Part shown: piece after piece, positions 2,435 to 14,082 of the stretch
Numbering within the stretch: the first letter of the stretch is position 1
Layout of the letters: each line of letters opens with the position of its first letter
Source of the DNA: Bifidobacterium aquikefiricola
GTDB lineage: Bacteria; Actinomycetota; Actinomycetes; Actinomycetales; Bifidobacteriaceae
Reading direction: 5' to 3'
Length of the DNA: 24,000 bases
NCBI RefSeq assembly: GCF_041080795.1
Contig: NZ_CP129674.1
Span: 2,268,629-2,292,628 of the forward strand
Translations under genes and position numbers: made by a program
The notes under the pieces: generated by a model
What the model saw: only the letters and a program-made list of their open reading frames with translations
What the model was told of the DNA's origin: nothing
The model's database searches: none

Positions 2435-2711
2435 TACAGTGCACTTTCCGGACGCGCGTAGTCAAATAACGCATGCAATTTGCGCGCCACATCTCCACTC
2501 TAACTAGAAACCAACGAGAAAGCGAGACCCACCTATATGCACACCAGCCGAAGCATCAGCCCGCAAAAAAATCAAAGCAAGCGCGCAGCGTAGAAGGAAA
2601 CGACCACATGTAAGTATCCGCAGATTCCCTCACACTCACAATCCCACACTCAATGCGTTTAAGTAAGCCTTACATTTTCGAGTGATGATGATCGCGAATT
2701 GTGCTGTGGCA

Positions 2712-3355
2712 TTACTCATGCGCTTTCTGGGACTGTAAATCACCACGAGAATTGGATGTTGAAGTGCTCCCGAGGATGTCGGCAGTCTGAACTGCACCGG
2801 CGAAATGCGGGAGTATCTGGTTGACGCAATACAGCGGCTGTTCCTGAGTGAACGCTGCCACGGCATCCGTGATAACCGATGCATTGTATCCCAGATCATG
2901 TGCAGATCTGATACTCGATTCGACGCAGACATGAAGGGCGAATCCCATGAAATACAGCTCACTGATATGTTGGGACTTAAGGTATTCATCCAGATCAGCC
3001 CCAGTGAATGCGCTGGATCCGGTTTTCCTGATAACCATTTCTCCGTCCGCAGGTGTGAAAGGTGGCGTAAATTCACTTGCCCGGGTTCCGGATTGCCAAG
3101 TTTGCGCTTTCTGAATCGCATATCTCATGCCGAATCGCGCAGGAGCAACTCCTGAGAGCCCTGGGTATCCGGGTTCAAAAAAAACATTCCACAATGTATG
3201 ATATGAAAATTCTGTCCACGCGCATATTCCAAAACCTCTCGCGCGTTCGACAGCGCCGATGGCAGATAATCAGGCTCCAAACGGCCATACAACCGGCCTG
3301 TTTCAGACAGCCATTCATTTTGGAATTCAATCAAGATTACAGCAGGATTTGACAT
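2712..3355 (-). pseudogene. Isochorismatase-family cysteine hydrolase interrupted by a frameshift in a homopolymer
   Basis: The N-terminal part reads MSNPAVILIEFQNEWL...NFHIIHCGMFF (ATG at 3355, GGAGGA RBS upstream). The C-terminal part reads (F)FEPGYPGLSG...GEMVIRKTGSSAFTGADLDEYLKSQHISELYFMGFALHVCVESSIRSAHDLGYN. The two parts lie in different frames and join exactly at the A8 run 3177-3184 (T8 on the coding strand). T9 or T6 would restore a single 214-aa-class ORF. Confidence 0.75.
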
Positions 3356-3829
3356 TCGTCCTCCAAAGAATCGGGCACAGCCCATGCACAAAGCAACGTA
3401 TCAATATTCAACAGGCAGACCCTATACAAACCGGCAGTCTTTCCATAGCCAAATGCATGCATCGTCCTTCGGCAGTCCCTTCTGCATGCATCAGCTAGAC
3501 ACACAGCATCTTCTAGACAGCTCCACAGAAGAATGAAGCCCAGCATTGCGAAACGCCGAGAGAAAGCGACACGCCCGTGTCCGCATTCACAGACAGCTGG
3601 CCAAGCGTTTCGGCATCGCAGCAGAAAAGCATCAGGCCGAACGTCGATTTTCCCATATATCAGGCTAATGAGAACCATTACCGATAGCGTCATTTCATCA
3701 ATCTAGATCCTGTCACAGCAAGCAAATTCATTGTTCTCATTCTGATAATTTGCAGAAAAACTTCGTAAATAAGTTAGTAAATTATACTTGATCGGTAATA
3801 TTGCGAACGTGTTTAAAAAATTATCTAAT

Positions 3830-5719
3830 ATGAATAAATTGGTGCGTGCTTGCGTGGCATTGTGCGTGGCATGCGTTGTTGGGTTAACAGGTGGTGCGAT
3901 ATACAATCCTCTGGCTGTTGCAAGTGAAGCGGATGCTCAGGGTTTTTCCCTGCATTCTGGTGAAGGCAGTGATGCGGGTGGCACTCACGTCGCGATACAA
4001 GCTCCTAGGAATGTGAGGTTTACCAGGATTGATACTGGTTCTGATCATTCATTGGCATTGGGCAGCGACGGCAACACCTACGCATGGGGCGACAATGAAT
4101 GTGGTCAGCTGGGCGACGGAACGACCACGAACCGGTCCACACCGGTACGCGTGAAAACCCCCGAAGGCGTGACATTCACCAACATTGATGGCGGTCTGAG
4201 TTTTTCAGTGGCGTTGGGCAGCGACGGCAACACCTACGCATGGGGCGACAATCAATATGATCAGCTGGGCGACGAGACGACCACGAACCACCTCACACCC
4301 ATACGAGTACACACTCCCGCAGGCGTAACATTCACCAGCATTAATGCCGGTTGGTACCACACCTTGGCGTTGGGCAGCGACGGCAACACCTACGCATGGG
4401 GTCTCAATGCATATGGACAGTTGGGCGATGAGACAACAACTAATCGGTCCACACCGCTACGCGTGCACGCTCCCGCCGGAATAAAATTCACCAGCATCAA
4501 AGACGGCTTGGGCCAGTCCTTGGCATTGGGCAGCGACGGCAACACCTACGCATGGGGCCGCAATCAATATGGTCAGCTGGGCGACGGAACGACCACTAAT
4601 AGATCCACACCGGTTCGAGTGAAAACCCCCGAAGGCGTGAGATTCACCAGCATCGATGGCGGTCTGGGCCATTCTGTGGCGTTGGGCAATGACGGGAACA
4701 CATACGCATGGGGCTTTAATTACCGTGGTCAGCTGGGCGATGACACAACCACGAACCAACTCACACCGGTACGAGTACACACTCCTGCAGGCGTAACATT
4801 CACTAACATTCATGCTGGTATGGGTCATACGCTGGCATTGGGCAATGACGGCACCCTGTACGCATGGGGGTGGAATGGATATGGTCAGCTGGGCGACGGC
4901 ACAACCACCAATCGCTATACACCAGTACGCGTGAATACTCCCAAAGGCGTGACATTCACCAGCATCGATGGCGGATATCGTCATTCGTTAGCGTTGGGTA
5001 GTGACGGCAACACCTACGCATGGGGCAGCAATGAATACGGCCCGTTGGGCGATGAAACAACCACCGATCGCTACACACCAGTACGTGTGAGCACTCCCGC
5101 GACGAAGGTTGTGAAAGTGTTGTTTGATGGTGTCGAGGGCAGTAATCTCATGTTTGATCAGGCATCAGGTCAGTGGCAGATCACCACACCAGCGCATACG
5201 CCTGGCACGGCGAACGTGAAGGTGCAGTGGACAGTAAGTGACGTTGCACAGCCGGACGCCTTGTTGTCATATACGTATATCGGCGTGAAGCATCATGTCT
5301 CCTTTGACGCTCAGAGTGGCTCTCAAGTTGATGCTCAGGATGTCGAGCAGGGCAAGACAGTGAACAAGCCAGCTGATCCTACACGTAAGGGTTACAGGTT
5401 TGTGCAGTGGACTAGCGATAAGGCCGGTAAGAACGCCTTTGATTTCAAGACACCCGTCACCGCAGATATCACCTTGTATGCGCAGTGGGTAAGCGTTGCT
5501 GCTTTCGGATCGGTGAATCCCACGACGAATCCCGGTATTTCAAGAACACCTTCTGCTCCGGCAGCTGGCAGCAGCGCCGTGAAGCCTTCTGGTGACACAG
5601 GCAGGAAGAGCGGCAATGCCTTGGCTTCCACCGGGAGCACGATAAGCGCTGTTGCTACTGCAATGCTGCTGTTCAGTGGTATTGGTGCGGCGCTTGTGTG
5701 GCGTCGTTGTCATGCATAA
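3830..5719 (+). CDS. Cell-wall-anchored surface protein: signal peptide, seven RCC1-type repeats (beta-propeller), Ig-like segment, Listeria-Bacteroides (Flg_new-type) repeat, LAxTG sorting signal
   Basis: Signal peptide MNKLVRACVALCVACVVGLTGGAIYNPLAVA/SE. There are seven 52-aa repeats with the RCC1 signature HSLALGSDGNTYAWGxNxYGQLGDGTTTNRxTPVRV. HHVSFDAQSGSQV...GKTVNKPADPTRKGYRFVQWT...ITLYAQW matches the Flg_new repeat pattern. The C-terminus has LASTG (5621-5635), a hydrophobic stretch and RRCHA. An alternative TTG start lies at 3788. Confidence 0.9.
   Translation: MNKLVRACVALCVACVVGLTGGAIYNPLAVASEADAQGFSLHSGEGSDAGGTHVAIQAPRNVRFTRIDTGSDHSLALGSDGNTYAWGDNECGQLGDGTTTNRSTPVRVKTPEGVTFTNIDGGLSFSVALGSDGNTYAWGDNQYDQLGDETTTNHLTPIRVHTPAGVTFTSINAGWYHTLALGSDGNTYAWGLNAYGQLGDETTTNRSTPLRVHAPAGIKFTSIKDGLGQSLALGSDGNTYAWGRNQYGQLGDGTTTNRSTPVRVKTPEGVRFTSIDGGLGHSVALGNDGNTYAWGFNYRGQLGDDTTTNQLTPVRVHTPAGVTFTNIHAGMGHTLALGNDGTLYAWGWNGYGQLGDGTTTNRYTPVRVNTPKGVTFTSIDGGYRHSLALGSDGNTYAWGSNEYGPLGDETTTDRYTPVRVSTPATKVVKVLFDGVEGSNLMFDQASGQWQITTPAHTPGTANVKVQWTVSDVAQPDALLSYTYIGVKHHVSFDAQSGSQVDAQDVEQGKTVNKPADPTRKGYRFVQWTSDKAGKNAFDFKTPVTADITLYAQWVSVAAFGSVNPTTNPGISRTPSAPAAGSSAVKPSGDTGRKSGNALASTGSTISAVATAMLLFSGIGAALVWRRCHA
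4019..5110 (+). repeat. Seven tandem 156-bp coding repeats (RCC1 blades)
   Basis: The units begin at F78 of the 3788 ORF and each is exactly 52 codons. The 33-mer TTGGGCAGCGACGGCAACACCTACGCATGGGG is identical in repeats 1-4 and diverged in repeats 5-7. Confidence 0.85.
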
Positions 5720-5792: not shown

Positions 5793-6164
5793 TCATGATG
5801 ACATGGCGGGGATAATTGGTTTTGCTGCGTTGCTCCGGTCAACCAGATCACGAGAATTCTCCACCCCGAGCACCAGCCGCTCATATTGCTCGCCTCTGAG
5901 TTGAATGACAACAGGGCATTCCGGCCTGGCAACATTCCAGAACGTCCTCTCCCCATTCTTGGAGAACACACCTGCCCACTTGCCGGGAACATGAAGACCG
6001 GGTGCACGCAAACCCTTAGTCTCGTCAAGAATGCCTGGATCCTCGGTCGCGCCCACAATATGCTCGATGGGTATCACCAGCTTAGTTTTAAACGACCACA
6101 CTCTATCCAGGCCCTGCGGCTCAATCTGCAGCATCCGCCCGGCAATTGTCACCTTGTTTCCCAT
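5793..6164 (-). CDS. Hypothetical 123-aa protein, possibly a small beta-rich or PH-like fold, co-transcribed with the upstream TetR gene
   Basis: The ORF has sensible codon usage. A GAAGGAAGG RBS is embedded in the 3' end of the TetR gene, and the ATG lies 2 nt after the TetR TAA stop. No diagnostic motif was recognised. Confidence 0.55.
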   Translation of the reverse strand: MGNKVTIAGRMLQIEPQGLDRVWSFKTKLVIPIEHIVGATEDPGILDETKGLRAPGLHVPGKWAGVFSKNGERTFWNVARPECPVVIQLRGEQYERLVLGVENSRDLVDRSNAAKPIIPAMSS

Positions 6165-6166
6165 GG

Positions 6167-6586
6167 TTACCTTCCTTCACCATCGGCGACCACACGAATG
6201 TGCGCACGCCGTAACAGCGTCTTGCCTAGGAGCGAAGCGATGTCAACGATATCGACAGTCCCCTCATCCAATCCGAGGCGAGACACCTTCGCCAAATAAT
6301 CCTCAACCAGCCCGCGAACCTCATGATCGCGACCCGACAGCTCCATCAGCGCCACCAAGACCAGATTGAGCACACCCGAATCTCGCGACTTCGAATTCGT
6401 CGCATCACGCAATGCAGCCACGAACATGCCCCTCTTGCTGCCGAACGCTCCGTACAAACTGCCCCGAAGCAGGCCTGTGGCTCTGACAAGTGCACCAATC
6501 GAAGCGCCCTCATACCCATGTATAAGGAAGACCTGGCGAGCATGAGCAAGGACCTCACCATCATCGAAGCTTCTATTACGACCCAT
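6167..6586 (-). CDS. TetR/AcrR-family transcriptional regulator (short, about 139 aa)
   Basis: MGRNRSFDDGEVLAHARQVFLIHGYEGASIGALVRATGLLRGSLYGAFGSKRGMFVAALRD is a typical TetR N-terminal HTH. The start was chosen at M32 of the track ORF (6586) because the upstream extension lacks protein character. Confidence 0.8.
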   Translation of the reverse strand: MGRNRSFDDGEVLAHARQVFLIHGYEGASIGALVRATGLLRGSLYGAFGSKRGMFVAALRDATNSKSRDSGVLNLVLVALMELSGRDHEVRGLVEDYLAKVSRLGLDEGTVDIVDIASLLGKTLLRRAHIRVVADGEGR

Positions 6587-6756: not shown

Positions 6757-7239
6757 ATGAAGCAATCAAAGCATTCCAGTATTCCCAGCCAGAGCGAGCT
6801 AGCGGCCAAGGCGAAACTTCTCGACGTACCTGCTACTCAGGTGATTCCCGACAAGTCCATCAGCGAAGTGCAAACGCTCACCAATCTGAGCATCGACACC
6901 CTTCGCTACTACGAAAAAATCGGCTTGATAGATTCCATAGCGCGCGATGCCAGCGGGCACAGGCTCTACAGCGACTTGGATGTGGAACGAATCAGATTCG
7001 TGCGCCGACTGCGCGCAACCGGCATGCCCGTATCGCGCATCACCCAGTACGTACAGCTGCGCGCCCAAGGGCCAGACACGGCGGACAGTCGTCTGCACAT
7101 GTTGCTTGACCATCGTGAAAAGCTGCTTCGCATGCAGCAGGAACTGGCTGACAGCCTGAACCTGTTGGACAGCAAGATTCTCTATTATCGCCATCTCGTC
7201 GGGCACAAGGACACGGATCGTGGAACAACGAAACAATAG
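6757..7239 (+). CDS. MerR-family transcriptional regulator, first gene of a MerR-MFS operon
   Basis: ISEVQTLTNLSIDTLRYYEKIGLIDSIARDASGHRLYSDLDVERIRFVRRLRATGMPVSRI is a MerR HTH and wing, followed by a C-terminal coiled coil. The start is uncertain: ATG 6757 is preferred, and an in-frame GTG at 6841 would give a more typical short N-terminus. Confidence 0.8.
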   Translation: MKQSKHSSIPSQSELAAKAKLLDVPATQVIPDKSISEVQTLTNLSIDTLRYYEKIGLIDSIARDASGHRLYSDLDVERIRFVRRLRATGMPVSRITQYVQLRAQGPDTADSRLHMLLDHREKLLRMQQELADSLNLLDSKILYYRHLVGHKDTDRGTTKQ

Positions 7240-8389
7240 AAAAGGACTCGGAAGTTCCTGGATAGCGGCATGGTGTTTCACCATCATCATGGCATCGGTG
7301 ACGGTGACCACGCCATTGTGGCAATACTACGAAAAACGATATGGCTTTGGGTCCACAGGAGTCAGCGTGGCATTCGGCGCCATGGCAGTCGGAGTGTTCA
7401 TGGCGCTGCCACTGCTTGGCGGACTTTCCGATTCATGGGGAAGATTCCGCGTGATGAGCGTTGCCATCGTCATCGACCTCATGGCAACGGCAATACTCCT
7501 CATCCCGGGAATTGCACCACTACTGCTGGCTCGAGTTTTGCAAGGCTGTGCCGTAGCGCTCACGGTGTCATCGGCACCACCGGCAATCAGCGAAGGCTTG
7601 TCATATGACGGACGATCTCGTCCAGAGTTGACCGCTTCGATCTCGACCGTGGCCAACCTTGGCGGCCTCGGCTTCGGAAGCCTTCTGTCGGCCATCGTGG
7701 TCGCCGCTGTCGGCAACCCTTTCATCGCCCCATTCCTTGCATTCGCAATACTGCTTTGCGCATCGCTGATACCTTGCGCACGCATTGCCGCGAGCGAAGG
7801 AAACCGGCGCAGTTTCCATGTGAGATTGCCAAAGGTTCCTGACGGAGGTCTGCGATCATACCTCGGTGCCGGACTCTGCGGATTGGTCTCCTTCGCCGCT
7901 TTTTCGGTATACGCATCGCTGGGTCCCGGAATTCTCGCGGACACATTCGCCATGCGCTCGACATTTGCAGGTCCCATACTCTACTGCTCGGTTATGGCAT
8001 GCAGCGCCGTAGGGCAGCTCGTTCTCATGCGCTTGCAGACAGCACGAAGGCGCATGACAGGAATGGGACTTTTCGTTGTTGGGTTTGCGCTGCTCTTCCT
8101 CGCGCTCTGTGAACACATGCTTATCGTTTTCATCATCGCCAGTCTGCTGCTCGGCCTAGGCTCGGGGCTTATCCTGGCTGAAGCCTCTCGCGTGGTAACC
8201 GCGCACTCTCACCGTGAAACCGCTGCCGCATCGCAGGCCGGTTTCTTTATGATGGGGTATGTTGGGATGATCATCCCAATCATCGTCCTCGCCTCACTGA
8301 TAGGCGCGGTCGGAACCACCACCGCGTTTGCAATCACTGGCACTGTACTCTCTCTGCTCGCCGCCGCAGGCATGGCCGCAACCTCATGA
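7220..8389 (+). CDS. MFS transporter (12-TMS class), probable efflux pump
   Basis: 389 aa and highly hydrophobic. The MFS motif A-like LGGLSDSWGRFRV follows TM2. The GTG start overlaps the MerR stop by 20 nt. Confidence 0.85.
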   Translation: MEQRNNRKGLGSSWIAAWCFTIIMASVTVTTPLWQYYEKRYGFGSTGVSVAFGAMAVGVFMALPLLGGLSDSWGRFRVMSVAIVIDLMATAILLIPGIAPLLLARVLQGCAVALTVSSAPPAISEGLSYDGRSRPELTASISTVANLGGLGFGSLLSAIVVAAVGNPFIAPFLAFAILLCASLIPCARIAASEGNRRSFHVRLPKVPDGGLRSYLGAGLCGLVSFAAFSVYASLGPGILADTFAMRSTFAGPILYCSVMACSAVGQLVLMRLQTARRRMTGMGLFVVGFALLFLALCEHMLIVFIIASLLLGLGSGLILAEASRVVTAHSHRETAAASQAGFFMMGYVGMIIPIIVLASLIGAVGTTTAFAITGTVLSLLAAAGMAATS

Positions 8390-8398
8390 TTGCGCTTG

Positions 8399-9277
8399 TT
8401 ACTGATTCTTTTTGGCCACAATGGAAAAGGTCAGAGGAATGCGGGGATATTGGTCAGGCATACGCCATCCGCCGTCATTCTCGTCTGCAGTCAACATTGG
8501 AAGGGATTGCCAATCCGCGACTTCATATTCTCCGATGTTTTCAATCGTCAGTCCGGCGTGGATTAGTGATTCTGTGATCTCGTGAAAATCATGCGCCCAG
8601 TTATGATTCCGTGTGTGCTCAATCTTCCCGGCCGAACCTTCGGTGTACGAGGAGTTGGAATCATATGAGGATTCGGTCCCACTGAAATAATCCTGCACAA
8701 CGTTCAACCCCGAATTATCAAGCGCGAACAACAGTGGATGATCATCTCTGATCATGAAAACACCGCCCGGAACAAGAAGATTCGCTATGGACTGCGCCCA
8801 CTCTGTCAAATCGGGCAGCCAGGTGATAGTTCCGACACTGGTAACGACCACATCGAAACGATGCTCAACCGGTGTCAATGCCTGATCGGAATGACGCGCA
8901 TCACCCTGCACAAATCTCACTGGAACCTGGGCACGTTGAGCTATAGATCTTGCATAGGCCAATGCGACATCCGAAAAATCAAGTCCGCACACGCCTCTGG
9001 CTCCAAGTCGATACCAGCTCACCGTATCGAGTCCGATATGGCACTGCAAATGCAGAAGCCGCCGATTTTCTATGCCCTGCGAGCCGAGAAAAGGAGCAAG
9101 AACCGCATAGTCTCGTCTGACAACTGACGTTATTTCCTCAGTATTATTAATGAAGGAATCAATGTCACCGTATCCGCCATGCATATGAACGCTGGCTCTA
9201 TCATTCCAGTTCTCAAGATTCTGATGCACGTCATCAGCATCGGACATATCTGTATGCACCATATGTAATTCCTTCAT
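8399..9277 (-). CDS. Class I SAM-dependent methyltransferase
   Basis: 292 aa. Motif I region LLHLQCHIGLDTVSWYRLGARGVCGLDFS, then FVQGD, and post-motif FDVVVTSVGTITWLPD...LLVPGGVFMIRDDHP. Confidence 0.85.
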   Translation of the reverse strand: MKELHMVHTDMSDADDVHQNLENWNDRASVHMHGGYGDIDSFINNTEEITSVVRRDYAVLAPFLGSQGIENRRLLHLQCHIGLDTVSWYRLGARGVCGLDFSDVALAYARSIAQRAQVPVRFVQGDARHSDQALTPVEHRFDVVVTSVGTITWLPDLTEWAQSIANLLVPGGVFMIRDDHPLLFALDNSGLNVVQDYFSGTESSYDSNSSYTEGSAGKIEHTRNHNWAHDFHEITESLIHAGLTIENIGEYEVADWQSLPMLTADENDGGWRMPDQYPRIPLTFSIVAKKNQ

Positions 9278-9404: not shown

Positions 9405-9674
9405 TCAGACGAGCTTGCGGCGCAGGTACTCGCTGCGGCTGATGTGGAATCTCTCAGCGTCCCGCGTGATCCTGTCAAGGGTGGATTTGGGCAGGCGGAA
9501 GCTCACCGTGGCCATCTCCTCCTCGCTCTGCGCGAGGTGCAGACCGTAGTAGACCTTGTCAGTCAGCCTGTCGTCCACGGTCTCGGACTCGACCTGACCG
9601 GCGTCTTTCTCGACCTGCTCGCTGCTCATGCCGAATTTTCTCAGCAGCTCCACGTCGTGCTGGCTCATGCTCAT
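9405..9674 (-). CDS. Ribbon-helix-helix (CopG/BrnA-like) antitoxin-type protein
   Basis: 89 aa. The C-terminal segment ATVSFRLPKSTLDRITRDAERFHISRSEYLRRKLV fits the RHH pattern. An AGGAGG RBS lies 6 nt upstream. The ATG overlaps the stop of the upstream ORF as ATGA. Confidence 0.7.
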   Translation of the reverse strand: MSMSQHDVELLRKFGMSSEQVEKDAGQVESETVDDRLTDKVYYGLHLAQSEEEMATVSFRLPKSTLDRITRDAERFHISRSEYLRRKLV

Positions 9675-9781: not shown

Positions 9782-9942
9782 AAGCGTATTACATAAAAAG
9801 AGACTGCATTTGTATGCATCCCAACCACCAGCAACAGCAGCGAGCAGCAGCGAAGCATCAGATGGCAAGAAAAGCCAAGGTAAACGAACAGCGTAGAAGG
9901 AAACAACATACAATTACCATTGGTTGTTCAGTCAAGGAGGAC

Positions 9943-10536
9943 ATGATGAATGAGTTGGACAAGTGTATGGCAGGTGAGATTTACGATGCTCACGAACAGG
10001 TTTTTCTGAAATACAAAACAGACGCGCGACGGTTACTTGACGCTTATTCCCAGCTACCGTATGAGGCAAAGGCCGAGAAAACAAGAATACTGCATGAACT
10101 GCTCGGTTCAGTGGGCGATAACGTCACCATCGGCATGAGGTTCACCTGTGACTATGGGCGAAATATCCATCTGGGGTCCAATATTTCGGTCAATATGAAT
10201 TGCACTTTTGTTGATTGCAACACGATCACCATTGGTTCTGACACCTTAATCGCATCCAATGTTCAACTCTATACGGCAACGCATCCAGCGGAGTTGGCTG
10301 AACGGCTGGTTGACGACTGGCACGCGGACAGCGGCCATTACCGCTGGAATACGTATGCGCGTCCAATCGAGATTGGTCGTGGCTGCTGGTTGGGTGGAGG
10401 CGTGATCGTGCTCCCGGGCGTGAAAATCGGTGACGGAACGGTAATTGGTGCCGGTGCAGTGGTAACGAAAGACATACCAGCAAACAGTATCGCTGTTGGC
10501 AACCCTGCACATGTGATTCGTACCATCAATCAGTAG
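9943..10536 (+). CDS. maa: Maltose/galactoside O-acetyltransferase (left-handed beta-helix, hexapeptide repeat)
   Basis: 197 aa. It has a Mac-type N-terminus (MAGEIYDAHEQ...RILHELLGSVG), CDYGxNIxLG, YTATHP, and hexapeptide repeats IGRGCWLGGGVIVLPGVKIGDGTVIGAGAVVTKDIP..SIAVGNPA. This closely parallels E. coli Maa. An AAGGAGG RBS lies at 9934-9940. The 71-codon upstream extension in the track ORF is rejected. Confidence 0.9.
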   Translation: MMNELDKCMAGEIYDAHEQVFLKYKTDARRLLDAYSQLPYEAKAEKTRILHELLGSVGDNVTIGMRFTCDYGRNIHLGSNISVNMNCTFVDCNTITIGSDTLIASNVQLYTATHPAELAERLVDDWHADSGHYRWNTYARPIEIGRGCWLGGGVIVLPGVKIGDGTVIGAGAVVTKDIPANSIAVGNPAHVIRTINQ

Positions 10537-10592: not shown

Positions 10593-10630
10593 CTACCCTT
10601 GTACCTCTCATGAGCTGGTATCGTGTGAGG
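10593..10630. repeat. Left copy of a 38-bp imperfect direct repeat flanking the AbiE cassette
   Basis: CTACCCTTGTACCTCTCATGAGCTGGTATCGTGTGAGG. It matches 12652-12689 at 34 of 38 positions, and the last 17 nt are identical. Confidence 0.8.
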
Positions 10631-10715
10631 AGCTTCCAATCTCAAATCGCTTCATCATCCAGCTAGACCAGATTTTTTCCTATGAGAAATCCGCAGGATG
10701 TCTGCCACCGAGGTG

Positions 10716-11636
10716 TCACCGTTCCACCCAGGCCAACAATGCTGGATCCCATTCGAGTGGTGTCGCGGTGTCGCGTGCGTACAGGTTTTCTAACAGTCCT
10801 TGTATCAGGGTGTGTGCTTGCTCTATGGTCATGTCGTCCACTTTGGTTGTCTGTGCGGTTTGATGGAATTGTGCAGGCTTCCAAGATTTAGGTATTGCGA
10901 ATTCGATAGGGTACGGCAGTTGACGTCGGACGCTTTCGCTTCTCAGTGATTCTTCGAGTGTACCGGCTTCGAAGCGTTGTGTGACGACGATGATCGCGAG
11001 GTCGACCAGATCCTTGATACGGCTGGATTCCCTCCCGTTGATCTTCTGCACCACGGCACACACCTTATCGGCGAACTGACAGGTGACCGGGTACAGGCGG
11101 TATGGATAAGTGGTCAGCCTGTCGATTGGCAGGCGGTTGACGGGTGTCAGCACATCGGCCCTGGGCATGGTTCCCTGATGAGCGACGAGGTCCACGTGTA
11201 TCGGATTGAGGAGCTTGACACCAAGACGAGTGTTGAAAACCACCCGCCACCCATCCTGATACGGCTGATTGTCCGCTTGAAGGATCGGCGTCGCGGAAAC
11301 GAATTCAAAGACGAAATGGTCGTGCAGGTCGATATCTGCCAGGCGTTTGAGTTCTTCGAGAGATTCTCGTGCATCGTATCCATTGCTGAACAGGTCCGCA
11401 TCGAGGGTGCGTCGGGTCGAGGGGATGCGGGCGAGCATGGCACTACCTCCTTTGAGTACCCAGGTGCTCTCCTCCCCCTCGCTGAAGACCCTGCTGAGGA
11501 ACCGGTCATAGTGAGCCTGTCTAATGAGGTCGCCTACCAGCCGTTTCGGATGGCGTGCATGCTCGGCTTTCGCGGCGCTTTTGATGGCCGCCTCGACCGC
11601 GATACCAGACGAGTAGGCGTAGGTGTCGTCGGTCAT
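10716..11636 (-). CDS. abiEii: AbiEii/AbiGii-family nucleotidyltransferase toxin (type IV TA / abortive infection)
   Basis: 306 aa. HYDRFLSRVF....WVLKGGSAMLARIPSTRRTLDADLF is the characteristic DUF1814/AbiEii N-terminal NTase motif. A GAAAGGA RBS is present. The gene lies 23 nt downstream of the AbiEi gene. Confidence 0.9.
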   Translation of the reverse strand: MTDDTYAYSSGIAVEAAIKSAAKAEHARHPKRLVGDLIRQAHYDRFLSRVFSEGEESTWVLKGGSAMLARIPSTRRTLDADLFSNGYDARESLEELKRLADIDLHDHFVFEFVSATPILQADNQPYQDGWRVVFNTRLGVKLLNPIHVDLVAHQGTMPRADVLTPVNRLPIDRLTTYPYRLYPVTCQFADKVCAVVQKINGRESSRIKDLVDLAIIVVTQRFEAGTLEESLRSESVRRQLPYPIEFAIPKSWKPAQFHQTAQTTKVDDMTIEQAHTLIQGLLENLYARDTATPLEWDPALLAWVER

Positions 11637-11659
11637 GATGTTGTCCTTTCTTCTGGGAT

Positions 11660-12544
11660 TTACGATTCTTTGGGATCAGCATCGTCTGAAGTGTCGGCGG
11701 GGAAAGTACCGCTGATGCCGGGATTCTCCTTGTCTGATTGCATGCGTTCAACGAACAGTTGCGCGAATTCATGGATCTTCATCAGGGCATTCGCGATAGC
11801 CTCAGCGTTACTGTTTGAGAACGAATCATACGTGAAATTCGTAAGGGACTCGAAGCGGTCACTTAGCACTTGGGCTGCATTCCGGAGCGTTTCACTGATG
11901 CGGTCATCCACCGGTCCCATCAGCTGCGCAACCATCGACTTCCCGTCCTCGGGGGCGAAACCTTGACGTTTCGCCAGCGGTGCCAGTCGTCTGGCGAGCT
12001 TATCCCTGTCCAAATCCCCGGATCGGTGCACAAACTCTTTCAGCAGCATGTTCTGAATCAAGGAAAGGTCTGTTCCTATTTCCACCAGATCGGCCACAGT
12101 CTGTTCGAATATCGTCACCGGCAGACCATTGACTATTCGCACGGACTCGCTGGGATAGCGTCGTGTGCGCAGCTTGAGATCTGCTCTTTGTGTCTGTCGT
12201 CGCCGCGGCGTGGAGAACCGGTAGGGTTCGGGAACGAAATCACCAACCCCGAGCATCCATGCTGCGCTTTCAAGACAGACGATGGCCTCGTCAGGCACGT
12301 CACGCAGACGTGCCTCAGCGGTGCGTTTCGGATCGATGGACAGCCAGGCGGCATGCACGCCCTCGAAAGCGTCAGTCGGCACCCCCGCATCCTTGTATAT
12401 ACCGTGAGCCAAACGCTCGAAGATACCTGACCGTTCCATGCGTGACAGATCGAGTCTCGTCACACCAAGCATCTCGGCTTGCGAGGTCGTCACCATACCC
12501 CACTGGCCTGATGTGAGTGTGGCAAGCTTTGCGACTTTATTCAT
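11660..12544 (-). CDS. abiEi: AbiEi-family antitoxin / transcriptional autoregulator
   Basis: 294 aa. The N-terminal winged-HTH is LATLTSGQWGMVTTSQAEMLGVTRLDLSRMERSGIFERLAHGIYKDAG (AbiEi_4-type). It sits upstream of AbiEii, which is the canonical gene order. Confidence 0.85.
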   Translation of the reverse strand: MNKVAKLATLTSGQWGMVTTSQAEMLGVTRLDLSRMERSGIFERLAHGIYKDAGVPTDAFEGVHAAWLSIDPKRTAEARLRDVPDEAIVCLESAAWMLGVGDFVPEPYRFSTPRRRQTQRADLKLRTRRYPSESVRIVNGLPVTIFEQTVADLVEIGTDLSLIQNMLLKEFVHRSGDLDRDKLARRLAPLAKRQGFAPEDGKSMVAQLMGPVDDRISETLRNAAQVLSDRFESLTNFTYDSFSNSNAEAIANALMKIHEFAQLFVERMQSDKENPGISGTFPADTSDDADPKES

Positions 12545-12580
12545 ACTTGTATTGTATCTTTATCTGATACAATACAAGTA
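12544..12580. promoter_or_regulatory. Perfect 15-bp inverted repeat (candidate AbiEi operator) overlapping the promoter and abutting the start codon
   Basis: TACTTGTATTGTATC (12544-12558), a 7-nt spacer, then GATACAATACAAGTA (12566-12580). On the coding strand the proximal arm contains a -10-like TACAAT 6 nt before the ATG, and the arm's last base is the A of the ATG. This implies a leaderless transcript. Confidence 0.6.
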
Positions 12581-12651
12581 CAAAGCATTCACGGACGAAC
12601 TGCCATCATCGACCACAGCAACAGCGTTGCATTTGAAAATAGACAACAGCT

Positions 12652-12689
12652 CTACCCTTGCATCGCTCATGGGCTGGTATCGTGTGAGG
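12652..12689. repeat. Right copy of the 38-bp imperfect direct repeat flanking the AbiE cassette
   Basis: CTACCCTTGCATCGCTCATGGGCTGGTATCGTGTGAGG. It lies 2059 bp from the left copy in the same orientation, inside the leader of the YjdF-family gene. Confidence 0.8.
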
Positions 12690-12746
12690 TGAAGATAAAA
12701 ACACAGTTCGGTACGGTAGTCCGGACGCGGTTTCCCGTCAGTATCC

Positions 12747-12789
12747 AGCCTCCTCGGCCGTCCAATCTTCTCGAATCATAGAGGAGGTT
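12747..12789 (+). promoter_or_regulatory. Predicted RBS-sequestering hairpin in the leader of the YjdF-family gene
   Basis: AGCCTCCTC (12747-12755) can pair with GAGGAGGTT (12781-12789) over 9 bp, including one G-U pair. The second arm is the GAGGAGG Shine-Dalgarno, 7 nt before the ATG at 12795. The loop is 25 nt. Confidence 0.3.
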
Positions 12790-12794
12790 GTAGT

Positions 12795-13238
12795 ATGCCT
12801 GAAAACGGGCGTAAGTTTTCAAAAGCTCAATCAACAGTATATTTTGACGGCTCGTTCTGGGTCTGTGTGTGCGAGCGCGAGAACGACGGGAAAATTCAGG
12901 TTTGTAGGATAGTGTTTGGCAGTGAACCAAAGGACTATGAGGTTCTTGATTATTTGCAGAAGCATTATTATTCGTTGGAGTTTAGTACTCCGATAAGTGT
13001 TTCCGACAGAAGCAGGAAAAGCTCTCGCAATGTGAATCCTAAGCGTCTGGAAAGAATGGCCGCTCGATCGATGCGACAACGTGGAATCAGCACAAAGGCA
13101 CAGTTGGCGCTTTCTGCTGCAAGGGATGAGCACAAGAAGAACGACAAGATTCAGAACCGTCTGAGAAGAGTCGAAGCGGATAATCATCGACGCATGCTCA
13201 AGATTCAGAAAAGAAAACTCAAGCATCGCGGACACTGA
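12795..13238 (+). CDS. YjdF-family (DUF2992) protein
   Basis: 147 aa. VYFDGSFWVCVCERENDGKIQVCRIVFGSEPKDYEVLDYL matches the DUF2992/YjdF N-terminal pattern as I recall it from B. subtilis YjdF. The C-terminal half is strongly basic (K/R-rich). A strong RBS is present. Confidence 0.7.
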   Translation: MPENGRKFSKAQSTVYFDGSFWVCVCERENDGKIQVCRIVFGSEPKDYEVLDYLQKHYYSLEFSTPISVSDRSRKSSRNVNPKRLERMAARSMRQRGISTKAQLALSAARDEHKKNDKIQNRLRRVEADNHRRMLKIQKRKLKHRGH

Positions 13239-13416: not shown

Positions 13417-13773
13417 TCATGCGGTTTGCAAGCGACGATTATGCTTCTGCATGTCTCTAGCAATCAACTCTCGCATGTATTCGGACTGGTTGCCTTGGCT
13501 CTTGACATACTCAGCCATGTATGCCGGTGCCTTGAAGTGCAGCACCTCGCTCTTCTCCCTACCCCGTTCGGCAAGGCTCGGACGTCCAAGCAGCATATTC
13601 GCTGCATCCTGAGCAGTCGTGGCGCCCGTCCATTCCATCAGATCCTTGTCTGCCTGCGCCTGCGCCTCGGCCCCCGTAGTCTCCTCAGCTTGGGAATCAT
13701 CCCAACGCCATACCTCGTCCTTGTGTGCCATCTCAGTGTCCTTTCGCCCGGTCTTCGTCATGTCTGCGCTCAA
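13417..13773 (-). CDS. RHH (BrnA/CopG-like) antitoxin candidate with an acidic N-terminal extension
   Basis: The C-terminal segment SEVLHFKAPAYMAEYVKSQGNQSEYMRELIARDMQ fits a ribbon-helix-helix. The gene lies 15 nt downstream of the putative toxin. The start is ambiguous: TTG 13773, ATG 13761, or ATG 13731 with an AAGGA RBS. Confidence 0.6.
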   Translation of the reverse strand: MSADMTKTGRKDTEMAHKDEVWRWDDSQAEETTGAEAQAQADKDLMEWTGATTAQDAANMLLGRPSLAERGREKSEVLHFKAPAYMAEYVKSQGNQSEYMRELIARDMQKHNRRLQTA

Positions 13774-13788: not shown

Positions 13789-14082
13789 TCAATCCTTGTC
13801 CCAAAAGTTGCCCTGCTCCGCATTGACATGGAATACGATCACTCGACCATCGGCCGCATGCTTCATCATCACCTCAATGCTCGGAACCAGTGGGTCGCCG
13901 TGATGTCTGCCAGTGAACTTGATATAGGTCTCACCGTCATGCTGCATCACACGTCTACGGATAATGTGCTGATAGGCGTATGTCACATCGTCCAGCTCGA
14001 ACCCGTGTCTGGAGGCCGATGTGGCGAACACTATCATGGAAGCGGGCATGCCATAAATAGTATCACAAAAAGATGCTACCAT
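13789..14082 (-). CDS. Putative toxin (BrnT/DUF497-like) of a toxin-first TA pair
   Basis: MIVFATSASRHGFELDDVTYAYQH...GRVIVFHVN loosely resembles the BrnT pattern (KHGv.FeDa..vf...). The protein is small (82-97 aa) and directly precedes an RHH gene. An extended -10-like TGATACTAT (14057-14065, minus strand) lies 7 nt before the internal ATG at 14049, so that ATG may be a leaderless true start. Confidence 0.45.
   Translation of the reverse strand: MVASFCDTIYGMPASMIVFATSASRHGFELDDVTYAYQHIIRRRVMQHDGETYIKFTGRHHGDPLVPSIEVMMKHAADGRVIVFHVNAEQGNFWDKD

Follow-up and report, generated by a model that had tools for sequence, protein, structure and literature searches.

The 24,000-nt stretch of Bifidobacterium aquikefiricola DNA analysed here (contig NZ_CP129674.1, positions 2,268,629 to 2,292,628; hereafter the window) contains a two-gene AbiE module, abiEi-abiEii, which lies between a maa-like sugar O-acetyltransferase gene and a yjdF gene preceded by an azaaromatic riboswitch, and which is bracketed by two copies of a 38-nt direct repeat (Table 1). 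The host is a water-kefir species comprising one isolate, with a GC content of 53.9% and an average nucleotide identity of ~81-85% to the nearest species (PMC11500810). Loci from other genomes and metagenomes that were compared with the window are denoted by L numbers.

Table 1. Features of the AbiE locus and its immediate neighbours; positions are counted from the first nucleotide of the window.
Feature	Position	Strand	Evidence or remark
maa-like sugar O-acetyltransferase gene, left neighbour	9946-10536	+	Pfam Mac and Hexapep domains
Left 38-nt direct repeat, attL-like	10593-10630	+	CTACCCTTGTACCTCTCATGAGCTGGTATCGTGTGAGG; carries TGGTATCGT at 10616-10624, as in the right copy
10-nt junction AGCTTCCAAT, from left repeat to start of AbiE-module homology	10631-10640		homology to L012 and L027 stops at 10641
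Conserved 3' tail of the AbiE module, truncated in the window	10641-10715	-	comparison with L012 and L027
abiEii, DUF1814 nucleotidyltransferase, predicted toxin, 306 aa	10716-11636	-	PF08843, E 4.4e-17
abiEi, winged-helix-turn-helix protein, predicted antitoxin/repressor, 294 aa	11660-12544	-	PF13338, E 1.1e-9, residues 7-50
Putative abiE operator/promoter, perfect 15-nt inverted repeat with 7-nt spacer	12544-12580		repeat search
71-nt spacer between module and right repeat, unique to the window locus	12581-12651		flank comparison
Right 38-nt direct repeat, attR-like, likely yjdF promoter	12652-12689	+	CTACCCTTGCATCGCTCATGGGCTGGTATCGTGTGAGG; TGGTATCGT at 12675-12683, TTGCAT at 12658-12663
Azaaromatic (yjdF) riboswitch aptamer, complete	12685-12781	+	Rfam RF01764, 67.7 bits, gathering score 45, model positions 1-101
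yjdF (DUF2992), right neighbour	12795-13238	+	PF11208, E 1.9e-43

The two copies of the repeat match at 34 of 38 positions (89%) in the same orientation, and their starts are 2059 nt apart. The pair was recovered both by the repeat finder and by a search with a degenerate 38-mer pattern, in accordance with the initial annotation, from which the repeats were known; at three or fewer mismatches the pattern returned only these two sites, both on the + strand, and none of 100 dinucleotide shuffles matched it. The mismatches fall at positions 10, 12, 14 and 21 of the repeat, leaving positions 1-9 and the last 17 nt (22-38) identical, and a clustering as tight as this is expected in ~6% of cases for four random differences in a 38-mer. 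Similarity drops off abruptly at either end. A Hamming scan of both strands detected no third copy in the window, the next best site having 15 of 38 mismatches, and the 38-mer is absent from ~150 kb of fetched Bifidobacterium loci. Patterns of 21 to 24 nt covering its core gave no match in the viral contigs of IMG/VR, the JGI metagenomes or 185,579 GTDB species genomes, and B. aquikefiricola itself is apparently not represented among these metagenomes and genomes. These counts bear on the possibility that the 38-mer is a member of a repeat family dispersed in B. aquikefiricola, either of the REP (repetitive extragenic palindromic) type or a promoter family, and that it flanks AbiE by coincidence. 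At one metagenomic locus (L057) AbiE is indeed surrounded by a dispersed intergenic repeat of 130-210 nt, present in four copies. However, with two copies in 24 kb, a 21-nt core that is unmatched in these genome and metagenome collections and both copies placed exactly at the two breakpoints of the AbiE module, we consider such a dispersed family unlikely here.

The 3' end of the right copy meets the start of a full-length riboswitch aptamer, which scores well above the gathering threshold of its Rfam family and lies 13 nt upstream of the DUF2992 gene. The insertion had initially been placed in the leader of the yjdF-family gene. Because the aptamer is complete and starts where the right repeat ends, the insertion site is instead the promoter region of yjdF, and the riboswitch is intact. 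DNA homology to the yjdF unit of L022, the nearest other one (69% aa identity), begins at 12690, one base past the repeat. Within the 3' block that is identical in both 38-mers lies TGGTATCGT, an extended -10-like element that ends 6 nt before the P1 stem; in the leader of L022, TATTAT occupies the equivalent position relative to its aptamer. The 38-mer thus probably represents the core of the yjdF promoter. Its sequence is not conserved in the yjdF leaders of L022 or B. crudilactis. We also considered the left copy as the relic of a decayed second yjdF leader, and rejected this, as the Rfam search found no second yjdF aptamer even at E<=10. An 8-nt match, TCCAATCT, between the sequence after the left copy and the 3' strand of the aptamer lies partly within the AbiE tail and may be due to chance or to junction microhomology.

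If the 38-mer is a promoter, its duplication could have a regulatory role and be independent of the arrival of AbiE: the left copy might fire rightwards, antisense into the abiE operon, or both copies might bind the same regulator. The -10-like element is identical in the two copies, and at locus L112 a repeated, promoter-like element of 25-42 nt precedes successive operons including the AbiE operon; repeated promoters can therefore bracket AbiE without being attachment (att) sites. In the window, however, no + strand gene follows the left copy, a simple consensus promoter scan called neither copy, and the limits of the repeats fall at the two breakpoints of a foreign module. A purely regulatory duplication has, in our view, a small chance of being correct.

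The riboswitch and yjdF may themselves be foreign to this genus. YjdF homologues are almost all from Firmicutes and the protein is nearly absent from bifidobacteria; close relatives were found only in a 3-kb Logan contig (69% aa) and in B. crudilactis (52% aa). Since the close homologues are few and the others nearly all from Firmicutes, horizontal acquisition of the riboswitch-yjdF unit in Bifidobacterium is suggested.

Between the repeats, open reading frame (ORF) and Pfam annotation finds abiEii, abiEi and the abiEi operator and nothing else, as initially described. Domains of integrases or transposases were likewise not detected in the cassette or, by the Pfam and precomputed annotations, in any sizeable ORF of the window. 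The operon is read from the minus strand with the antitoxin gene upstream of the toxin gene and a 23-nt gap between them, in place of the 4-nt overlap seen in the closest relatives of the module. Several features are shared with the type IV toxin-antitoxin and abortive infection AbiE systems of Lactococcus lactis and Streptococcus agalactiae (PMC3985639), namely the bicistronic abiEi-abiEii order, a winged-helix-turn-helix AbiEi (N-terminal, COG5340 / PF13338), a DUF1814 nucleotidyltransferase with motifs I-IV, a putative inverted-repeat operator in the promoter, and residence on mobile elements. These motifs have been defined as hG[G/S]..DhD with an Arg (I/II), a Lys (III) and +DxxD (IV) (Dy et al., PMC3985639). 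In the translated AbiEii they correspond to KGGS...RRTLDAD (KGGS-x-RRTLDAD), DK191 and K208DLVD212, and their residues are invariant or nearly so across 16 homologues. AbiEi has in addition a weak match to the AbiEi_1 C-terminal domain in the precomputed annotation. A role in toxin-antitoxin addiction and phage defence is predicted for the pair.

The operator of the window differs from that of the characterised systems, having arms of 15 nt separated by 7 nt rather than arms of 23 nt. The inverted repeat has its first base at the abiEi ATG, and a TACAAT sequence is found 6 nt upstream of this start codon. As the operator repeat begins at the start codon, the abiE mRNA is probably leaderless, with its promoter within the operator, which would be another departure from the characterised systems. 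The inverted repeat is kept in four homologous loci (window 12544-12580; L012 5059-5096; L018 5062-5099; L027 6057-6093), with symmetric, compensatory changes in the arms such as would be expected for the binding site of a dimer, putatively AbiEi. L027 has an additional direct copy of the distal operator half-site just upstream.

The AbiE module occurs with the same ends (about 10641-12581 in window coordinates) and 80-89% nucleotide identity in three other, unrelated contexts. In a metagenome-assembled genome (MAG) of Bifidobacterium sp. (L012-L017; 82% identity, window 10641-12578) it belongs to a defence island that also encodes GmrSD, TIR, a second AbiEii and SIR2. In a B. crudilactis MAG (L018-L021; about 80%, window 10727-11653 and 12047-12581) it lies beside a coupling protein of a type IV secretion system, and in a metagenome contig (L027/L028; 85-89%, window 12581-11091 and 10785-10641) beside tRNA-Asn. 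None of these contexts contains the 38-mer. The upstream boundary of the module in all four contexts is the outer edge of the operator, and the 71-nt spacer that follows it in the window is not significantly similar to the flanks upstream of the module in L012, L018 or L027. The proposal of a discrete cassette is therefore supported by the recurrence of one module with the same ends, but the unit that is shared spans about 10641-12581 and not the whole distance from repeat to repeat.

At the other end, the window module is truncated. L027 is its closest relative and L012 is an outgroup to both; these two share ~46 nt more of the 3' tail than the window, with a 41-nt core that is identical at 35 of 41 positions, and the equivalent segment of the window is no more similar to the L012/L027 tail than shuffled sequence. 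Because L027 and the outgroup share a tail that the window lacks, 10640|10641 is a genuine breakpoint: by parsimony, the ancestral module would have had the longer tail and the window lineage would have been cut at this point, 10 nt from the left 38-mer. The junction looks like a deletion or an illegitimate joint beside the repeat. The idea that the left 38-mer is merely a diverged AbiE 3' tail was rejected, local alignments to the L027 and L012 tails being no better than those of shuffled sequences, and a search for terminator structures in the AbiE 3' tail was uninformative. In L027 itself (7001-7609) an internal deletion of ~305 nt, equivalent to window 10786-11090, has cut abiEii to 202 aa and left the antitoxin intact; this addiction module is apparently decaying.

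A breakpoint of this kind could also be produced without site-specific recombination. Foreign linear DNA with AbiE might have entered at a staggered break, or through two illegitimate recombination events in the course of repair or replication, so that 38 bp of the yjdF promoter were duplicated as a target site and later acquired four substitutions. Such a target-site duplication would account for a repeat that consists of local sequence and stops sharply at both ends, for a cassette without a recombinase, for a left junction inside the conserved tail of the module, as expected of an illegitimate joint, and for the lack of the 38-mer in other Bifidobacterium loci and in the genome and metagenome collections. 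Against it stand the four changes per 38 nt that must have occurred after insertion, and the fact that the best-characterised parallels, described below, carry duplications of a 3' tRNA half or of a gene's 3' end, one of them beside an integrase, which is the signature of site-specific integration. Moreover, the target duplications made by transposases or casposases are, to our knowledge, much shorter than 38 bp. We therefore regard duplication by non-site-specific insertion as unlikely.

The search for a locus without the insertion consisted of exact-protein look-ups for YjdF, Maa, the ribbon-helix-helix (RHH) protein and the TetR regulator of the window, and all contigs returned were 100% identical to the window. 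Some of the metagenome contigs from the same clone break in or beside the AbiE module, L003 starting at window position 12578, L004 starting at 12635 and L007 ending at 11108. These breaks were likely caused by the 82%-identical AbiE module of another Bifidobacterium present in runs of the same accession series (L012-L017). The closest named homologues of Maa are maltose acetyltransferases of Bifidobacterium (75% identical), whose loci show no synteny to the window. Similarly, the two closest YjdF relatives (69% and 52% aa) possess the riboswitch, lack the 38-mer and have other genes upstream, and scanning with YjdF peptides found nothing in the genome collection, which apparently does not include this species. 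As to a plasmid or phage origin, distant-mode blastn of the cassette gave no match in PLSDB or INPHARED, and no relatives of AbiEii were found in IMG/VR.

Whether repeats bracket AbiE more generally was addressed with 80 further, distant AbiEii loci (35-64% aa identity) fetched from metagenomes. Usable flanks were available for 40 of the distant loci and for L012, L018, L027 and the window, and the number of testable loci was 43. For each locus, the flanks reaching 1.5 kb upstream of abiEi and 1.5 kb downstream of abiEii were compared with each other, and the locus was given the score of their best direct repeat; scores above 45 bits were counted as strong. Strong bracketing repeats were present in six of the 43 loci (L052, L057, L068, L070, L027 and the window) and at none of 50 pseudo-modules shifted by 3 kb in the same loci, where no score exceeded 34 bits (Fisher's exact p=0.008; p=0.038 without the two discovery loci). 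The inverted-repeat control reached at most 37 bits. Self-BLAST of 337 kb added L038/L039 and L112 to the bracketed loci, and nearly every direct repeat spaced 1.7-4.4 kb in the surveyed loci turned out to bracket AbiE. The other bracketed AbiE loci have flanks of a similar kind, but each has its own local repeat and not the 38-mer of the window. No flanking repeats were found at L012 and L018, which are among the closest relatives of the module.

Three of the bracketed loci have targets of the type used by integrases. At L068 the repeated sequence corresponds exactly to the 3' half of tRNA-Thr (45 nt, anticodon loop to 3' end), and the tRNA gene is followed by an AbiE-only islet, by the repeated tRNA half and then immediately by a Phage_integrase gene; judged from this gene order, L068 has the classic layout of tandem accretion. 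In L070 the repeat is composed of the last 27 nt of glnA plus 7 nt. The 35-nt repeat of L027 (5389-5423 and 7991-8025; 32 of 35 positions match) has its right copy a few nt from the 3' end of tRNA-Asn. The 2.6-kb islet of L027 has no integrase inside, and remnants of integrase pseudogenes were found inside neither the L027 nor the L070 islet.

The remaining loci are more heterogeneous. In L052 the AbiE pair lies between an intact tyrosine integrase gene (2595-3920) and a 146+43-nt duplicate of its catalytic C-terminus (5889-6077; ..FHDLRHFAATMAAISG..); a second integrase is encoded on the opposite strand at 1133-2338. L038/L039 has a 34-nt repeat, 94% identical, with copies 1.74 kb apart, a MazE module following the islet and no integrase nearby. 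The G-rich intergenic repeat of L057, with GGGGGTGCA motifs, occurs at 2509-2722, 3555-3768, 6311-6460 and 7534-7680, where it separates a Gp49/HigB-like cassette, the AbiE cassette and further genes; two of the copies end in a terminator-like hairpin, and an Rfam search gave no match. L112 has four copies of TAGTCTTTAAGTGTCAGGTTCAA (552-585, 2544-2585, 6944-6985 and 8726-8750), each 15-25 nt upstream of a ribosome-binding site and ATG, that precede the successive operons (N6-methylase, AbiE, ArdC/IrrE-like) of an ArdC-bearing element; this looks like a repeated promoter in the leading region of a conjugative element. Bracketing of AbiE by repeats is thus common but has no single cause, because the dispersed repeat of L057 and the promoter-like repeat of L112 differ in kind.

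For the window we favour, with a probability of about 0.5, the reading that the 38-mers are attL/attR-type junctions of a small islet without an integrase, either similar to a cis-mobilizable element (CIME) or a remnant, protected by addiction, of a larger island. An AbiE-bearing element would have recombined with a 38-bp site that overlaps the promoter of yjdF, the gene under riboswitch control, most likely through a tyrosine recombinase that was either encoded by the element at that time or supplied by a related element. By bringing its own imperfect copy of the site, the element would have placed the target on both sides and left the yjdF promoter complete. The recombinase and other cargo would since have been lost, with a deletion endpoint at the truncated AbiE 3' tail, 10 nt away from the left repeat, and the AbiE pair would have been retained as an addictive toxin-antitoxin and abortive-infection module. 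AbiE is known to stabilise replicons and to occur on mobile elements (PMC3985639), and a deletion of everything but the toxin-antitoxin pair fits the locus, since the tail is truncated next to attL and AbiE has this stabilising property. The remaining islet would have att-like repeats and no integrase, and could in principle be excised by a cognate integrase acting in trans. What we infer from this arrangement is the integrase step, the role of the 38-mer as a promoter, the succession of events and any mobility that the islet may still have. The initial proposal of a cassette that moves by a mechanism not encoded within it gains indirect support from the comparison with other AbiE loci, although movement itself would belong to the inferred part of the history.

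Islands inserted by tyrosine recombinases at the 3' ends of tRNA and protein genes are similar in having direct repeats of tens of bp of target sequence, which are imperfect outside an identical block, and in restoring the function of the target; L068, L070 and L027 fit this pattern. Unlike them, the window has no integrase, and its duplicated target is the 5' control region of yjdF. Targeting of a 5' end or promoter, with restoration of the target, is a property of the dusA-specific islands. CIMEs, defined as elements that have lost the genes for integration and transfer and retained attL and attR, and their tandem accretion with integrative and conjugative or integrative and mobilizable elements, as in CIME/ICESt3 of Streptococcus thermophilus (PMC6323972), provide the nearest comparison. 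They share with the window the att-like repeats in one orientation and the lack of integration and transfer genes, only abiEi and abiEii lying between the 38-mers, and the arrangement of L068 matches the accretion architecture. Differences are that the islet of the window has no known cognate integrase or integrative and conjugative element, that it carries nothing but one operon of two genes, about 2 kb in size, and that its target is a promoter instead of the 3' end of a gene or tRNA.

Several observations speak against a site-specific origin. No empty site was found, the public sequences of B. aquikefiricola being those of one clone identical to the window. The 24-kb window contains no integrase, nor an adjoining integrase-bearing element like that of L068. 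No independent attB or attP is known, because none of the genome, metagenome and viral collections has a match to the core of the 38-mer. The site of insertion lies in an intergenic promoter, neither in a tRNA nor at the 3' end of a gene, and the predicted promoter has a spacing of only 14 nt between TTGCAT and TATCGT. The four mismatches fall in the middle of the repeat instead of being confined to an edge. No obvious dyad symmetry or hairpin is seen in the right copy, which folds no better than shuffled sequence (z = 0.6), the left one folding weakly better (z = -2.2).

Integration might also have taken place without any dedicated recombinase. A circular AbiE-bearing DNA with a diverged 38-mer, for instance one looped out of a similar locus in another strain, could have recombined with the chromosomal 38-mer in a RecA-dependent, Campbell-type crossover. 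This would suit the orientation of the copies, their 89% identity with an unbroken block of 17 identical nt, and the lack of a recombinase in the window. On the other hand, 17-38 bp of imperfect homology is at or below the limit of efficient exchange by RecA, no donor locus with the 38-mer is known, and the tRNA or gene-end sites beside integrases at other AbiE islets would be left unexplained. We accordingly give homologous integration little weight, and retain the att-type junctions as the preferred explanation.

Integron attC cassettes and the pdif modules of Acinetobacter are small, often consist of toxin-antitoxin pairs, and are bounded by short recombination sites whose enzyme is encoded elsewhere. 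The window islet is likewise a small toxin-antitoxin module between short repeats and without its own recombinase. However, the 38-mers are direct rather than inverted repeats, are made of local target sequence, and show neither the imperfect palindromes and folding of attC nor inverted 28-bp XerC/D sites with an 11-6-11 layout, and no integron integrase was found nearby among the ORFs of the window. A transposon or insertion sequence is not indicated either, as there is no transposase, the 38-mers contain no terminal inverted repeats, and the duplication is imperfect and 38 nt long, in contrast to the short duplications (2-14 bp) of such elements.

Further features of the window lie outside the AbiE islet. 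A second imperfect direct repeat of ~48 nt (~80% identity) is located at 2557-2604 and 9860-9907, the latter copy a short distance before the maa start codon; translated, either copy would give a basic peptide stretch rich in K and R (..QRRRK..). At least six tandem units of 156 nt, 73-83% identical, occupy 4019-5098 within an ORF of 643 aa (3788-5719), for which RCC1/WD40-like repeats are annotated in an identical contig. Downstream of yjdF, two adjacent small genes on the minus strand (13417-13773 and 13789-14082) have no Pfam match, and the first of them ends in an RHH-like ..SEYMRELIARD.. motif. Upstream of maa, the minus strand encodes an 89-aa RHH/CopG protein (9405-9674) with a weak, sub-threshold NikA-like match. 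These three genes may be further remnants of toxin-antitoxin or mobilisation functions.

Integrase-less islets with att flanks and island remnants stabilised by toxin-antitoxin genes are already known, and no new mechanism is revealed by the locus described here. What is mildly new is the very small, AbiE-only cargo, the promoter of a riboswitch-controlled gene as the duplicated target, and the fact that repeat-bracketed islets with AbiE alone recur in unrelated metagenomic lineages. A more far-reaching interpretation, which we consider possible but rather doubtful, is that AbiE pairs form recurrent minimal cassettes (about 1.7-2.9 kb) without recombinases, equipped with target mimics of 34-45 bp (a tRNA half, the 3' end of a gene, the promoter of a riboswitch gene), and that integrases, resident or neighbouring, move them actively in trans, so that they would be more than decayed remnants; the islet of B. 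aquikefiricola would then be a live example that rebuilds the promoter it interrupts. If the att-type reading is true, the window presents a clean and very small case of a defence and addiction module that outlived its inserting machinery, or hitch-hiked without it, and of an insertion that preserves the expression signals of the adjoining gene. The frequency of strong bracketing repeats in the survey, compared with their lack in the shifted controls, suggests that islets with AbiE alone arise repeatedly, as an end state or as a vehicle, which would be relevant to the spread of defence genes and to their persistence in 'defence islands'.

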